DNA from: Escherichia phage ECO111 5-P
Sequence record: OR844765
Reading direction: 5' to 3' (one strand)
DNA length: 64,000 nucleotides
A model generated the notes under the pieces. It worked only from the letters and a program-made list of their open reading frames with translations, was not told where the DNA came from and did no database searches. Every line of letters starts with the position of its first letter. Position 1 is the stretch's first letter. Shown here piece by piece: positions 59,944-64,000 of the stretch. The translations under genes were made by a program, and so were the position numbers.

Positions 59944-60579
59944 ATGAAAACTACTCCTATTACTATCGCTATTGACGCAATCATAAAACAAGCTTCTTCT
60001 TTGGCCGCTATGGCCAAAGTAATTAGTCAAAACCCTGCTCGTTATAATGCTATTCTAGAAACTCTTCGACGCCCTGGACTGAGTAATTATGAAAGTCGTG
60101 TAATTATTACAGGTGTTGGTAAGAATGCTAATATCGCAACTAAAGCTTCTGAGACATTTGCTTCACTCGGTATCCCGAGTATGTACTTGAACACTGGGCA
60201 TTATTCTCATGGTGACGCAGGATTTATTGCACCTAATGATGTATTAGTTCACATCAGTCGTTCTGGTAAGACTGAAGAAATGATAGGTGTTGCTAAACAT
60301 CTTCGTATGATTCGTCCTCAGGTTAAACAGATTCTGTTACATTGTAACCCTGACATTCCACAAGAATACGAAGCTCTTTTTGATTATACGTTCTGTACCG
60401 GTATCGCGGTAGAAGTTGACGAGAACTCTTTAGCTCCGACAATGTCCACTACATTGTTGTTAGCGCTTATCGATACGTTTGCTATCAACCTTTCGTCTGA
60501 GCGTGGATTTACCTCTAATGACTTCCTCAAGTTCCATCCAGGCGGTGCACTAGGTGCCATGTTGCGAGGCGAACAATGA
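59944..60579 (+). CDS. SIS-domain sugar-phosphate isomerase (KdsD/GmhA-like)
   Basis: ITGVGKNANIATKASETFASLGIPS is a SIS motif; 211 aa. Confidence 0.7.
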   Translation: MKTTPITIAIDAIIKQASSLAAMAKVISQNPARYNAILETLRRPGLSNYESRVIITGVGKNANIATKASETFASLGIPSMYLNTGHYSHGDAGFIAPNDVLVHISRSGKTEEMIGVAKHLRMIRPQVKQILLHCNPDIPQEYEALFDYTFCTGIAVEVDENSLAPTMSTTLLLALIDTFAINLSSERGFTSNDFLKFHPGGALGAMLRGEQ

Positions 60580-60719
60580 AAGCAATAACAATAGGACTTT
60601 TACTATTGATGCTTGTCATGACTATCTACTGGAGCTTAACGGCTCCAGTAATGATTCCGACTCTCATAATCGGATGGATTATGATTGGACTACAAGCAAA
60701 GTATGAATGCTTTAACTAG
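60576..60719 (+). CDS. possible 47-aa two-helix membrane peptide
   Basis: Hand-translated MKAITIGLLLLMLVMTIYWSLTAPVMIPTLIIGWIMIGLQAKYECFN; ATG overlaps SIS stop. Confidence 0.3.
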   Translation: MKAITIGLLLLMLVMTIYWSLTAPVMIPTLIIGWIMIGLQAKYECFN

Positions 60720-60760
60720 AATAGTGTACAATACACCTACTTACCAATGAGGACCACAAC

Positions 60761-62446
60761 ATGAAAAAAGCTGTTATTCTTGGTGCTGGACTGGCAACTC
60801 GTTTGTATCCAATAACGCATCATATTCCTAAGGTGCTTGTTAACTATAAACAAGACACTATTCTGAGCAATTTGTATACAATTTATTCTGACCTTGGCGC
60901 AGATGAAATTATTGTAGTAGTTCATTCAAAATTTGCTGAAACTGTTCGAGCTTATTGTGAGCAAGAAGGGTTCAATGTGACTATTCGTACAGTTGATGAA
61001 GCGTACGGTTCTGCTTATGCTCTTGCTAAATTACACAAAGATTTAGACGGCCATAATGTAATTGTTAACTGGTGTGATATTATTCCCGATTTTGGTTCAT
61101 GGTCTTGGAATGTTAACGCAATCTATGTTAAGGGTGACGAATGTCGATATAATTTCGACGGTGAAAATATCACTAATGTAGGTTCAACAGGTGGTAATGT
61201 TGTAGGAATTTATCAGTTCAAAGACTGGGAATTCTATATGGGTTCTACCGATGAGGAAATTCATGAATACTGCAAAGGACGCGATTTCGTAGAATTCCTT
61301 TACGGCAGCGCATTCAATAAATCAGAGCTTATGAATCTAATTGATTTAGGTGATATGCCTAAACTTGAAAAAGCTCATGAAGTTCGTGAACTTAATCGTA
61401 GTTTTAATGCAGTTGAAATTGGTGAAGAAACTGTAACTAAATTCGCATTAACCGAACAGGGTCGAGCTCTTCAGAAAGATGAGATTTCATGGTATTTGAA
61501 AGTGAAATCAGATTCAGTTCCTCAGTTAGTTTCTGTTAATGAAAATAACTTTGAAATGGAACGTATTAAAGGTAAGCCGGCATTTGAATATATTAAATCC
61601 AAATCAAGTCTTGCTCGTCCACAAATTGTTGATGCAATTTTAGATGCACTGAAATTCAGCACAGACACTTATTTTGTAAGTCCTGAAACTGTTCGCCGTG
61701 ATTTCACTAAAGAATTCTATACGAAAGTTATTGATCGTTGTGAAAGCATTCAACCATTGATTGATTCATTTGGTAAAATCACCCATGTGAACTACACTAA
61801 GATTGGGCGTCTGAAGCCAATGCTGAAACAAGCTTTAGAACACCTTATTCGTTATCATAACCGTTCTCAGGGACAGTACTCTGTTATTCATGGTGACCCG
61901 AACTTCAGTAATACTATGATTACTGATAACGGCGAAGTCAAGTTTATCGACCCTCGTGGATATTTTGGGGAAACCAAGATTTACGGGCCAAAATTGTACG
62001 ATGAAGCTAAAGTGCTTTATGCTGTTTCAGGTTATGATGAATTCAACGCTAATCCGACCTGGGGACAGTTTACTATTGATGAAACAACTTGTAATGTGAC
62101 TATTAACATCAATCCATTAGTTTACAAATATGGAAAGATGAGTTCGTTTAACGAGTATCATCATTTGGCAGTGGCAATTATCTGGATTGCATTAGGTGGT
62201 TATTTCAAGAATAATCCACTTAAAGCGGTAGCCGCATATTATAAAGGTATGGAACTTCTGACTAAGCAATTACGTAACATGGGCCGTGTACTTCAGGACG
62301 GCTCTATTAGTTATGACGTAGCAGAACCTGTAACGGCTACTCTGATTACAAAAAATCCTGGTAAATGGGTACTAACTGATAAAGAAACTGGTGTTTCTTA
62401 TCGTCCAATCGGTGGCGATATCACTCATCAATGGGAACGAATCTAA
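60761..62446 (+). CDS. bifunctional sugar-1-phosphate nucleotidyltransferase / sugar kinase
   Basis: N-terminal ILGAGLATRL (NDP-sugar pyrophosphorylase G-x-G-x-R); C-terminal VIHGDPNFSNTMI...FIDPRGYFG (APH/choline-kinase HGDxxxxN and IDx motifs). Confidence 0.7.
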   Translation: MKKAVILGAGLATRLYPITHHIPKVLVNYKQDTILSNLYTIYSDLGADEIIVVVHSKFAETVRAYCEQEGFNVTIRTVDEAYGSAYALAKLHKDLDGHNVIVNWCDIIPDFGSWSWNVNAIYVKGDECRYNFDGENITNVGSTGGNVVGIYQFKDWEFYMGSTDEEIHEYCKGRDFVEFLYGSAFNKSELMNLIDLGDMPKLEKAHEVRELNRSFNAVEIGEETVTKFALTEQGRALQKDEISWYLKVKSDSVPQLVSVNENNFEMERIKGKPAFEYIKSKSSLARPQIVDAILDALKFSTDTYFVSPETVRRDFTKEFYTKVIDRCESIQPLIDSFGKITHVNYTKIGRLKPMLKQALEHLIRYHNRSQGQYSVIHGDPNFSNTMITDNGEVKFIDPRGYFGETKIYGPKLYDEAKVLYAVSGYDEFNANPTWGQFTIDETTCNVTININPLVYKYGKMSSFNEYHHLAVAIIWIALGGYFKNNPLKAVAAYYKGMELLTKQLRNMGRVLQDGSISYDVAEPVTATLITKNPGKWVLTDKETGVSYRPIGGDITHQWERI

Positions 62447-62832
62447 TGCACCGTGTAGAAAACATGCTTAATCTTTGTTTTGATGTCGATGATTGTATAA
62501 CAGAGTGGAATAACAATCGTGATTACGTGAACTTCAAACCAGACGTCGAAATGGTGTCTGCCATTAATGCTCTGTATGATGCAGGGCATACAATAACGCT
62601 TTACACTGCTCGCGGTATGAAGTCAGTAGGTCCTGGTCGTATAGCAATTGACATTCTCCCAAGTCTGATTCAGAACTTGGCAAACATTGGCTTGAAGTAC
62701 CATAATTTGCTAACACATAAACCAGTATATGATTGGATTATCGACGACAAAGCTATGCGTCCTGACGAATTCAAAGCTCTTATGAATAAAGGCGAATTCG
62801 AAACATTTAAATCGTATAAACCAAATCTATAA
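62446..62832 (+). CDS. HAD-like phosphatase (KdsC/GmhB-like)
   Basis: LCFDVDDCITEW fits HAD motif I (DxD); ORF track 62431 trimmed to ATG 62446. Confidence 0.5.
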   Translation: MHRVENMLNLCFDVDDCITEWNNNRDYVNFKPDVEMVSAINALYDAGHTITLYTARGMKSVGPGRIAIDILPSLIQNLANIGLKYHNLLTHKPVYDWIIDDKAMRPDEFKALMNKGEFETFKSYKPNL

Positions 62833-62889
62833 TAATTTAAGTAAGACCTGCAAAAACCATCGCATCAATTAACGTGAGATGCAAAAAAA

Positions 62890-64000
62890 ATGAATACTTT
62901 TAAAATCGGAACGAATTTTGATTTAGCTCTTCTTGATAAAATCGTAGAGCTCAATAAAACCTATCCTAATAGCTTGATAAACGAAGTATATGGCTCTACA
63001 AGAGAAATGGCTTTTGTAGCAGCCAGACCTGATTTTAGGCTTCCTGACGTTGACAAAAAGATGTTAGAAGACTACGTTAAACGTTGTAACGAATTAGGTA
63101 TTTGCTTTAACTATACACTCAACACGATAAATCCTGGTTCAAAAAGAGAACTAGTTGAGTGGAAGAAGAAAGCTATTCAGGATTATGTTCAGTATCTTTG
63201 GTCAATAGGCGTATGGCGTATTACTATCGCTAACCCTGTTGTTATGGAAATTGTTCGTGAAGTCAATAAAGACATTGAGATTGAAGTTTCAACAATTCTA
63301 CATGTCGATGCTGTAACTCAAATCAAATACTTGCATGACCAATATAATATCAAAAAGGTCTGCTGTGGAATTCATAAGAACCGTTCAGTTTCTTTCCTGA
63401 AGCGTGCAGCAGAGTTTTGTAATAAGAACAATATAATATTTGAAGTTCTTGTAAATGAGTTCTGTTCTAATGCTGGTAAAGGGTATACAACACATTGTAG
63501 CTATCGTGACTCTTGCTATATTTTCCATAGTACTGATGTTACAGCTGATGATGCTAAATCCTTAAACGGATATCCTATGCAGCACTGTATTAAAGCTCGT
63601 GATACAGACCCATTTAACTGGTTGAGAACTCGTTTTGTTCGTCCTCAAGATTTGAAACTTTATAATGATATTGGTATCACTCAATTCAAAGTTTCAGGAC
63701 GTACAGGTAGCACAGACTACATTTTGAAAGTTCTTGAAGCATACGCTTCTGAAAAGTTTGAAGGTAATTTGTTAGAACTGTGGAAGCCTTTAGAGACTAT
63801 TTTCACTCTTGAAAATGAGACTGAGTTTTCACATACAGTAAATATTGAAACCTCTTTGTTAGATGGCTTTTTAGAAAAAAGGTGGTTCAGACATCCAGAT
63901 TTTGATTGTGCTAATGAAATCTGTGGGTCAACGTGTACATATTGTGAAAGGTATTATAAACGTCAATTATCTAAAAACGGGTTAGCAGAAAACTCCATAT
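62890..64000 (+). CDS. U32-family (PrtC/RlhA/TrhP/UbiU-like) protein, 5' part only (runs off window end)
   Basis: ATG 62890, open to 64000; resembles U32 landmarks (FNYTLNT; NEFCSNAGKGYTTHCS; FKVSGRTGSTDY) plus C-terminal Cys cluster C..C...C..C. Confidence 0.45.
   Translation, partial: MNTFKIGTNFDLALLDKIVELNKTYPNSLINEVYGSTREMAFVAARPDFRLPDVDKKMLEDYVKRCNELGICFNYTLNTINPGSKRELVEWKKKAIQDYVQYLWSIGVWRITIANPVVMEIVREVNKDIEIEVSTILHVDAVTQIKYLHDQYNIKKVCCGIHKNRSVSFLKRAAEFCNKNNIIFEVLVNEFCSNAGKGYTTHCSYRDSCYIFHSTDVTADDAKSLNGYPMQHCIKARDTDPFNWLRTRFVRPQDLKLYNDIGITQFKVSGRTGSTDYILKVLEAYASEKFEGNLLELWKPLETIFTLENETEFSHTVNIETSLLDGFLEKRWFRHPDFDCANEICGSTCTYCERYYKRQLSKNGLAENSI

Follow-up and report, generated by a model that had tools for sequence, protein, structure and literature searches.

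We analysed a 64,000-nucleotide stretch of DNA from Escherichia phage ECO111 5-P (record OR844765), hereafter the window, and focus on positions 59,944 to 64,000, where a gene encoding a U32-family protein, the homologue of RB69 gp50, closes a run of sugar-nucleotide genes downstream of the DNA polymerase gene gp43. The sugar pathway adds nothing new, whereas for the U32 gene comparative genomics yields a specific and fairly novel candidate function, the hydroxylation of cytosine for DNA modification without O2.

Five open reading frames (ORFs) follow gp43, all on the forward strand, and encode in turn a SIS-domain isomerase, a small peptide, a nucleotidyltransferase-kinase fusion, a HAD phosphatase and the U32 protein (Table 1). 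ORF calls, family scans and identities to RB69 proteins bear out the four genes that an original prediction, made from the sequence of the window, had placed after the polymerase; that prediction missed the hydrophobic peptide of 36 amino acids (aa). Across positions 57192-64000 the DNA is 98.2% identical to Escherichia phage PhAPEC2 and 97.5% identical to RB69, and the counterparts of RB69 gp55, ORF054c, gp52:53, gp51, gp50 and gp43 share 97.2-99.9% of their residues with the RB69 proteins, so the phage is a Mosigvirus distinct from the RB69 reference. The four kilobases of the cluster recur in 154 phage records at 95-99% identity (megablast). The window ends after the first half of the cluster, before the genes for gp49, the synthase gp48, the glycosyltransferase gp46:47 and the kinase gp45; the ThyA-like synthase and the DNA arabinosyltransferase belong to the same cluster in the closest relatives, PhAPEC2 and RB69, and in 15/15 T4-like loci with this U32. 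Sequence comparison identifies the region as the promoter-proximal half of the cluster with which Mosigvirus phages modify their DNA with arabinosyl-5-hydroxycytosine. A promoter and terminator scan of positions 59800-64000 was uninformative: 12 sites resembled promoters where 15.4 were expected, and 3 resembled terminators where 2.3 were expected.

The sugar half of this cluster is already known as a pathway to UDP-arabinofuranose for 5-hydroxycytosine (5hoC) in DNA. RB69 DNA carries mono- and di-arabosylated 5hoC, with arabinose ether-linked directly at C5 (Lee et al., NAR 2026, PMC13326640), and cytosine is the only base replaced (PMC13326640). Arabosylated 5hoC was established in virion DNA of RB69 and Mosigvirus NP by liquid chromatography-mass spectrometry and nuclear magnetic resonance (PMC13326640, PMC13390438), and an earlier 'arabinosyl-hmC' assignment was declared wrong, the C5 linkage being confirmed independently in Mosigvirus NP (PMC13390438). 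The sugar acceptor is therefore 5hoC rather than the hydroxymethylcytosine (hmC) originally predicted (PMC13326640, PMC13390438). The hydroxyl is introduced by the ThyA homologue gp48, which binds FMN and hydroxylates dCMP at C5 with oxygen from O2, as determined by 18O2 labelling (PMC13326640). In the same study gp55 is assigned as an isomerase converting ribulose-5-phosphate to arabinose-5-phosphate and gp46:47, by prediction, as the transferase adding the first arabinose to 5hoC (PMC13326640). As relayed there from He et al. 2026, AfhE of HY126 phosphorylates arabinose-5-phosphate at C1 to the 1,5-bisphosphate and later uridylylates arabinose-1-phosphate, an AfhF-like enzyme (gp51 in RB69) strips the 5-phosphate between these two steps, and the isomerase, AfhE and AfhF reportedly suffice for the whole route to UDP-arabinofuranose (PMC13326640). 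These functions of the homologues agree with the prediction that the first three genes of this RB69-like phage turn a pentulose phosphate into a nucleoside diphosphate-pentose with which DNA is decorated (PMC13326640). The predicted order of steps, with dephosphorylation ahead of 1-phosphorylation, gives way to the relayed HY126 order of isomerisation, 1-phosphorylation, removal of the 5-phosphate and uridylylation (PMC13326640).

The gp50 subfamily of U32 proteins

The U32 ORF follows a 57-nt spacer and runs off the end of the window, which lacks the final 16 residues of the protein. It matches Pfam PF01136 (Peptidase_U32) over residues 94-286 at 6.6e-11, with 42.4 bits against a gathering cutoff of 22.4. 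An AlphaFold2 model of the 370 residues in the window, built from 49 sequences, has a predicted local distance difference test score (pLDDT) of 94.6 and a predicted template modelling score (pTM) of 0.92. The top Foldseek match of this model in the PDB is the U32 protein Mk0906 (5d88; E 3.7e-7, TM 0.71 on the target), followed by generic TIM barrels, and a PDB search with the sequence gave no match at E <= 1. As modelled, gp50 has a U32 TIM-barrel-like fold.

Nine cysteines are invariant in all 121 U32 homologues compared, down to 46% identity: five in the centre of the protein, which are candidate [4Fe-4S] ligands, and four in a C-terminal cluster that is a candidate second metal site (Table 1). 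The original prediction had singled out the terminal cluster, which is real, but the functionally telling cysteines also include the central five on the canonical iron-sulphur (Fe-S) segment of U32 proteins. By both MAFFT and hhalign these central residues align onto the CX6CX15CX3C [4Fe-4S] segment of TrhP and RlhA, in differing registers; we set aside the MAFFT register, in which Cys2 is replaced by Tyr, for the differing and more convincing hhalign register. The C-terminal cluster is specific to the phage subfamily and was absent from UbiU, UbiV, TrhP and RlhA in the alignment. Its last three cysteines have the form CX3CX(aromatic)C (CGSTCTYC) as in radical-SAM proteins, and several divergent phages encode Radical_SAM/SPASM proteins of their own close to U32 (L014:1-249, L015:12160-13185, L021:5972-7000; such handles denote loci of other phages), which may be coincidence.

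When the subfamily profile was compared with the U32 paralogues of E. coli by hhalign, RlhA ranked first (E 1.4e-5 over 203 columns, in the RlhA catalytic domain), followed by TrhP (0.003), UbiU (0.009) and UbiV (0.2). RlhA, TrhP and UbiU/UbiV are Fe-S proteins needed for O2-independent, prephenate-requiring hydroxylations, with prephenate as the oxygen donor in the case of UbiU/UbiV (PMC10990095, PMC13602947), which substantiates the earlier remark that the family includes Fe-S hydroxylases. The gp50 subfamily is separate from these proteins; a search of 1.84 billion representatives at E <= 1e-30 puts it at about 476 clusters of 50% identity, and the contexts sampled were phage-like only. Some divergent loci contain a second, more distant U32 paralogue a few kb from the first (L015:13227-14360, L066:12227-13360), an arrangement that recalls the UbiU/UbiV pair.

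Gene context and distribution of the U32 gene

A gene for a type II chorismate mutase (CM; Pfam CM_2, cutoff 27 bits) overlaps or closely follows the U32 gene in six T4-like lineages, namely Winklervirus, Kanagawavirus, Marfavirus, Tegunavirus, Bragavirus and Shewanella phage Thanatos (scores in Table 1). The U32-CM pair of Thanatos-2 (L005:8001-9391) stands after the kinase and before uvsX, not before the synthase, so the two genes have moved together. This CM was found in 51 of 50,697 phage records, every one within these clusters. Between U32 and CM, phages of Yersinia and Pectobacterium and Serratia phage 92A1 carry a small ORF homologous to gp49 (tblastn), and the fuller module is therefore U32, gp49-like, CM and synthase. 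Members of the gp49 family have 65-79 aa, no cysteine and no Pfam match, overlap U32 by 4 nt in Mosigvirus and may be accessory to the U32 enzyme. The idea that Mosigvirus gp49 is itself a diverged CM was rejected, as it has no Pfam match even at E <= 1.

More distant U32 homologues (44-58% identity) lie on phage contigs of up to 466 kb, and shikimate-type genes, that is CM, DAHP synthase or a fusion of the two, adjoin U32 in at least five divergent architectures, in phages whose U32 is 44-55% identical (Table 1). We considered whether the DAHP_synth_1 neighbours could be KDO8P synthases, which would link them to arabinose-5-phosphate, and rejected this since they score 131-237 bits as DAHP synthases against 47-67 as KDO8P synthases; three of these neighbours are fused to CM domains. 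Phage DAHP synthases with a C-terminal CM domain (L047:5411-6433, L049:5321-6376, L058:8079-9197) have the reverse of the domain order in the AroA-type fusion of Bacillus subtilis, and phage genes for the shikimate entry step appear undescribed in the literature searched.

Across 17 divergent U32 loci, thymidylate-kinase-like genes account for 7 of 99 neighbours. Other recurrent neighbours in divergent phages include a dCMP deaminase gene overlapping the start of U32, dUTPase/DCD, NT5C, deoxynucleoside kinase, nucleoside deoxyribosyltransferase, UDG and DnaE polymerase, and in locus L020 U32 overlaps a TAGT DNA glycosyltransferase gene beside UDP-galactopyranose mutase. In the phages with DnaE polymerase (L014:9175-9939, L017:9080-9826), one on a 466-kb contig, a dCMP-deaminase-family gene precedes U32 with a 4-nt overlap and an unannotated protein of ~250 aa, seen in these loci only, is encoded after it; no gp46:47-type glycosyltransferase was found nearby, so the fate of the hydroxylated base may differ there.

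The presence of the O2-dependent synthase separates the two groups of loci. When the loci were searched with a profile that combined six phage synthases with ThyA of E. coli, a ThyA-like synthase was found in 15/15 T4-like U32 loci (E <= 1e-122) and in 0/35 divergent loci, where nothing within the searched 7-8 kb of U32 scored better than E = 0.2. The same divergent loci encode a gp46:47 homologue in 24/35 cases, usually abutting U32, an AfhE-like protein in 15/35 and an arabinose-5-phosphate isomerase (API) in 9/35. On gene content, these phages thus appear to combine a transferase that needs a hydroxylated base, a sugar supply and U32 with no ThyA-type hydroxylase within that distance.

Hosts were reconstructed from three sequence searches, with counts adding up exactly, for the 221 phage records in which U32 is full length and at least 80% identical. 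All are Enterobacterales (Escherichia, Klebsiella, Shigella, Serratia, Proteus, Yersinia, Enterobacter, Providencia, Edwardsiella, Erwinia, Pectobacterium, Kosakonia and Morganella) or Shewanella, which are facultative anaerobes. The ThyA-like synthase is also encoded in 57 Acinetobacter and 20 Rhizobium phage records, none of which has U32; Acinetobacter and Rhizobium are aerobes. Within T4-like phages U32 is confined to those with the 5hoC cluster. Acinetobacter phage Konradin and the E. coli Dhakavirus JS10 have the synthase and the sugar genes and neither U32 nor CM, and Acinetobacter phage DLP3 makes tri-arabinosyl-5hoC with a cluster that lacks U32 (PMC13326640); U32 is therefore not required for arabinose supply.

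A scan of one genome per prokaryotic species recovered six U32 loci, in Erysipelotrichales, a Bacillota metagenome-assembled genome, Oscillospiraceae, Romboutsia (two) and Phocaeicola faecalis, all of them obligately anaerobic lineages. Of these six, one has the gene order glycosyltransferase, API, AfhE-like and U32 (L067) and another U32, CM, glycosyltransferase and AfhE-like (L069). The window itself encodes the anaerobic ribonucleotide reductase NrdD and its activase NrdG outside the cluster (Table 1), which equips the phage to make DNA precursors without oxygen. NrdD is preceded by endonuclease VII (gp49 of T4; 42796-43269, +); these are ordinary T4-type genes, but NrdD and NrdG count as evidence for anaerobic replication of the phage.

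Proposed function of gp50 and its alternatives

Based on these comparisons, we propose with moderate confidence, as the most economical reading, that gp50 is an Fe-S enzyme that hydroxylates cytosine at C5 with prephenate and without O2 and provides a second route to 5-hydroxy-dCMP. Its most likely substrate would be dCMP, because dedicated thymidylate-kinase-like genes travel with U32. The sugar route has been worked out by others in homologues: the isomerase supplies arabinose-5-phosphate from ribulose-5-phosphate, the kinase domain of the fusion phosphorylates C1, the HAD phosphatase takes off the 5-phosphate, the nucleotidyltransferase domain completes UDP-arabinofuranose, and glycosyltransferases encoded further downstream and elsewhere transfer the arabinose to 5hoC in DNA. 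gp50 would place the C5 hydroxyl on cytosine alongside the flavin- and O2-dependent 5-hydroxy-dCMP synthase gp48, encoded two genes downstream, with prephenate donating the oxygen to the base and becoming phenylpyruvate and CO2, a mechanism already proposed for UbiU/UbiV. Its nine invariant cysteines would bind the catalytic cluster and, at a second site, a centre for electron transfer. The prephenate would come from a CM of the phage itself in many relatives, and the phage of the window would draw on host PheA/TyrA. Such an enzyme would allow a gut coliphage that destroys dCTP to make its sole usable C nucleotide when the O2-requiring gp48 cannot work. By rough estimate, a 168-kb genome at about 37% G+C contains ~63,000 cytosines and a burst of 100-200 would use ~10^7 prephenate molecules per cell, which would explain the phage-borne CM or DAHP synthase in many relatives.

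We consider it plausible, though short of probable, that the subfamily as a whole is a widespread phage-borne O2-independent pyrimidine C5 hydroxylase acting on DNA precursors, serving as a backup to the ThyA-like synthase in T4-like phages of facultative anaerobes, whereas in many phages that infect strict gut anaerobes no other hydroxylase would supply the gp46:47-type glycosyltransferases.

Several observations weigh against the hydroxylase proposal. gp50 is only 17-22% identical to characterised U32 proteins and is not orthologous to any of them, its match to the NCBIfam UbiU model reaching 18.5 bits against a cutoff of 440. Its central spacing (C192-X10-C203-X5-C209-X23-C233) is not the canonical one, and the alignment methods disagree on the register. 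Even RlhA and TrhP have yet to be shown to hydroxylate their targets directly in vitro (PMC10990095). The lineage of the window has no CM, which it lost or never had, and the unrelated gp49 family occupies that position. The correlation of U32 with aerobic or anaerobic hosts is confounded by phage phylogeny, and since Dhakaviruses such as JS10 do without U32, the gene is not universally needed in facultative anaerobes. The missing ThyA-like synthase of divergent loci applies to the 7-8 kb searched around U32, co-occurrence with sugar genes would equally fit a sugar-related role, and the dCMP deaminase and dUTPase neighbours suggest that divergent phages might hydroxylate uracil instead of cytosine.

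The strongest alternative, which we regard as unlikely but worth serious attention, retains the chemistry and changes its target or timing: gp50 could hydroxylate residual cytosine in DNA after replication, act on dUMP or provide redox support to gp48. The Pfam match, cysteines, hhalign ranking and fold fit this version equally, RlhA and TrhP act on polynucleotides (PMC13602947), and the deaminase, dUTPase/DCD and Radical SAM/SPASM genes near divergent U32 loci could be read in its favour. However, cytosine alone is replaced in RB69 DNA (PMC13326640), the co-travelling thymidylate-kinase-like genes point to a mononucleotide product, and in the divergent loci U32 has no gp48 homologue within the 7-8 kb searched, which shows that it does more than assist gp48.

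A role on the sugar side, as a reductase, epimerase or other tailoring enzyme of the arabinose donor, appears improbable. U32 directly follows the three sugar genes, distant phages carry it together with genes for AfhE-like proteins and API, and U32-bearing Shewanella phage Thanatos carries deoxypentose rather than arabinose. However, we know of no U32 enzyme that acts on sugars, and such a role leaves unaccounted for both the recurrent CM and DAHP synthase neighbours and the distant phages that have a glycosyltransferase but no other base hydroxylase. Existing labels point to the sugar, including 'Sugar or heterocycle reductase' (PMC13326640) and 'putative enzyme involved in UDP-arabinose biosynthesis' (phage AlbertHofmann), yet the route to UDP-arabinofuranose is, as relayed in PMC13326640, complete without U32, and DLP3, Konradin and JS10 have arabinosylation genes without it.

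It is more doubtful still that gp50 is an RlhA- or TrhP-like RNA hydroxylase forming ho5C or ho5U in host or phage rRNA or tRNA to tune translation, with its position in the cluster incidental. T4-like phages do encode tRNAs, and RlhA is the best profile match. The characterised U32 enzymes of nucleic acids act on RNA (PMC10990095, PMC13602947), but gp50 has no counterpart of the ~270 aa that extend RlhA at its C-terminus or of the C-terminal domain found in TrhP, its gene adjoins those for DNA glycosyltransferase, thymidylate-kinase-like protein, dCMP deaminase and DNA polymerase in unrelated phages, and in T4-like phages it keeps to those with the 5hoC cluster. We reject the reading of gp50 as a genuine collagenase-like peptidase, which the family name, the 'peptidase' annotation of most database records, many of them phage records, and the same label of its PHROG 5757 match would suggest, on the strength of its nucleotide and DNA-modification gene context, with no substrate or secretion signal apparent, and of nine invariant cysteines that point to metal clusters, the U32 members with a function covered in PMC10990095 and PMC13602947 being hydroxylation factors.

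The original prediction held the role of U32 to be unexplained, which is true of the literature examined: PMC13326640 gives gp50 a single table label, its text contains neither gp50 nor U32 nor an anaerobic route, and its Discussion cites the RlhA and TrhP pathways solely as unrelated routes of pyrimidine hydroxylation. That prediction lacked clues because the CM of relatives, the downstream O2-dependent synthase and the host range lie mostly outside the window. We found no literature explaining the U32 gene, although He et al. (Nat Chem Biol 2026) and Mahler et al. (Cell Host Microbe 2025) may address it, and none joining hydroxycytosine, prephenate and bacteriophage. The Thanatos, Thomas 2018 and Tevenvirinae papers offer nothing functional on the gene beyond 'homologs among peptidases', and the Thanatos study, which modelled TH1_057-065 only, had 'no valid hypothesis' for the origin of the cytosine hydroxyl.

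An O2-independent gp50 would fill a logical gap, since the sole known source of 5-hydroxy-dCMP needs O2 and RB69-like coliphages, which inhabit the gut and have a ribonucleotide reductase for anaerobic conditions, replace every cytosine in their DNA. If correct, the proposal would bring a U32 enzyme and a reaction dependent on prephenate into DNA modification for the first time, extending the chemistry of prephenate as an oxygen donor from RNA and quinones to DNA precursors, and because gp50 would be soluble, consist of one chain and act on a simple small molecule, it could permit in vitro reconstitution of the family. It would also explain why phages carry CM and DAHP synthase genes and, if it held for the subfamily as a whole, would imply that some phages rewire the shikimate pathway to pay for the reaction and that glycosylated 5-hydroxypyrimidine DNA is common in anaerobic viromes. 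U32 with a gp46:47-type glycosyltransferase and without ThyA would then mark hypermodified DNA in uncultured phages of anaerobes, with relevance to restriction, CRISPR, sequencing bias in gut viromics and phage therapy.

Accompanying genes and comparison with known systems

Table 1. Features of the window and of U32 loci in other phages; plain positions refer to the window, L handles to loci of other phages.
Feature	Position	Strand	Details
gp43 DNA polymerase, upstream landmark of the cluster	57192..59903	+	903 aa; 99.9% identical to RB69 gp43; synteny as in PhAPEC2 and RB69
Single-domain D-arabinose-5-phosphate isomerase, RB69 gp55 homologue	59944..60579	+	211 aa; Pfam SIS 9.6e-10; 97.6% identical to gp55
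Small hydrophobic ORF MLVMTIYWSLTAPVMIPTLIIGWIMIGLQAKYECFN, RB69 ORF054c homologue	60609..60719	+	36 aa; 97.2% identical to RB69
AfhE-like bifunctional nucleotidyltransferase-kinase, RB69 gp52:53 homologue	60761..62446	+	561 aa; PHROG 4098 at 3.7e-295
AfhF-like HAD phosphatase, RB69 gp51 homologue	62446..62832	+	128 aa; 99.2% identical to gp51; PHROG 1238 5.3e-43
U32-family protein, RB69 gp50 homologue	62890..64000	+	residues 1-370 of 386; 99.5% identical to gp50
Central cysteines C158, C192, C203, C209, C233; candidate [4Fe-4S] ligands	63361..63588	+	invariant in 121/121 homologues
C-terminal C340-X4-C345-X3-C349-X2-C352; candidate second metal (Fe-S or Zn) site	63907..63945	+	invariant in 121/121 homologues
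NrdD anaerobic ribonucleotide reductase (context, outside cluster)	43266-45083	+	Pfam NRDD 1.8e-171 (572 bits), Gly_radical 4.6e-25
NrdG, activase of NrdD (context, outside cluster)	45080-45550	+	Fer4_12 4.3e-49, Radical_SAM 9.8e-8
CM_2 beside U32, Serratia LC53			44.6 bits
CM_2 beside U32, Enterobacter Entb_45			40.9 bits
CM_2 beside U32, Klebsiella PhiKpNIH-6			39.5 bits
CM_2 beside U32, Yersinia phiR1-RT			36.0 bits
CM_2 beside U32, Proteus Pm5461			46.8 bits
CM_2 beside U32, Shewanella Thanatos-2			32.8 bits
gp49-family members	L001:13103-13342; L007:7194-7391; L008:7133-7342		L001 is PhAPEC2, just past the window end
Small CM adjoining U32	L052, L054-56, L059, L060, L068, L069		divergent loci
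DAHP synthase-CM fusion adjoining U32	L047-49, L058		divergent loci
DAHP synthase alone adjoining U32	L019, L037		divergent loci

The isomerase is matched by PHROG 5670 'arabinose 5-phosphate isomerase' at 2.6e-116 and by the NCBIfam models KpsF/GutQ (8.9e-32, profile positions 2-153 of 268, below the equivalog cutoff) and KdsD (3.9e-30). Its SIS catalytic domain resembles that of KdsD and GutQ, with matches to the KpsF/GutQ, KdsD and GutQ models at 1e-22 to 1e-32, all below equivalog cutoffs. However, the phage protein is shorter (211 aa against about 320-328), and no tandem CBS pair was detected in it, the profiles matching over the SIS portion only; the single-domain Bacteroides enzyme 3etn (cited in PMC13326640) resembles it.

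The N-terminal half of the fusion is a sugar-1-phosphate nucleotidyltransferase (Pfam NTP_transferase, 8.5e-10 over aa 3-99; GAGLATRL motif) and its C-terminal half an APH/choline-kinase-like sugar kinase (weak kinase-family matches over aa 308-409; HGDPNFSN, an HxDxxxxN motif). The gene is a single ORF in the window and in PhAPEC2, and is split in the RB69 reference (L002:8095-9781) into p053 and p052, to which the fusion is 98.2% and 98.8% identical, respectively; the split has been put down to a sequencing error (Lee et al., PMC13326640), and the intact window ORF agrees. The phosphatase ATG overlaps the preceding stop codon as TAATG, the longest ORF beginning at 62431 (133 aa), and the protein carries a DVDD HAD motif and matches NCBIfam TIGR01689 (capsule biosynthesis phosphatase, 4.3e-13) and no Pfam family.

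The hydrophobic ORF is annotated at the equivalent position in PhAPEC2, RB69 and Serratia LC53, where the record adds 'Transmembrane segment(s)'. A membrane-type peptide is thereby encoded between the isomerase and the bifunctional gene, inside an operon for cytosolic sugar-nucleotide synthesis. A segB-like homing endonuclease gene sits between the phosphatase and U32 genes in Serratia LC53 (L003:6352-6990) and Yersinia phiR1-RT (L007:5352-5990), marking this junction in two lineages as a hot spot for recombination or insertion.

Among known systems, the gp45-gp55 cluster of RB69 and the Afh cluster of HY126 are closest, with identical gene order after gp43, proteins 97-99.5% identical and the same predicted product. 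In the RB69 study (PMC13326640) gp50 has only a speculative table label and gp49 none, and the hydroxylase role proposed here is absent. RlhA (YdcP), responsible for ho5C2501 in 23S rRNA, belongs to the same family, is the best profile match of gp50 and would share with it the C5 hydroxylation of cytosine if our proposal holds. Dependence on Fe-S and prephenate is known for RlhA and predicted for gp50. The two differ in that they share 22% identity, RlhA has 653 aa and gp50 386 without the C-terminal extension, and gp50 has altered cysteine spacing, an extra C-terminal four-cysteine cluster and a deoxynucleotide rather than rRNA as its proposed substrate.

The T4-type NrdAB and NrdDG reductases likewise place an O2-dependent and an O2-independent enzyme for one DNA-precursor step in one phage, although enzymes and chemistry are unrelated and the analogy is one of logic only. 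Further parallels are TrhO and TrhP, which form ho5U in tRNA, and UbiI-H-F with UbiU-V, where an O2-requiring enzyme and a U32 prephenate-dependent enzyme yield one product (PMC6599085, PMC10990095, PMC13602947). gp48, with FMN and O2, and the U32 protein gp50, encoded two genes apart, would form a similar pair, the O2-requiring Ubi enzyme also being a flavin enzyme. The gp48/gp50 pairing is proposed from genomics alone and, unlike those pairs, both of its genes are viral and adjacent. UbiU and UbiV hold one cluster each, whereas the invariant cysteines of gp50 would suffice for two clusters in one polypeptide.

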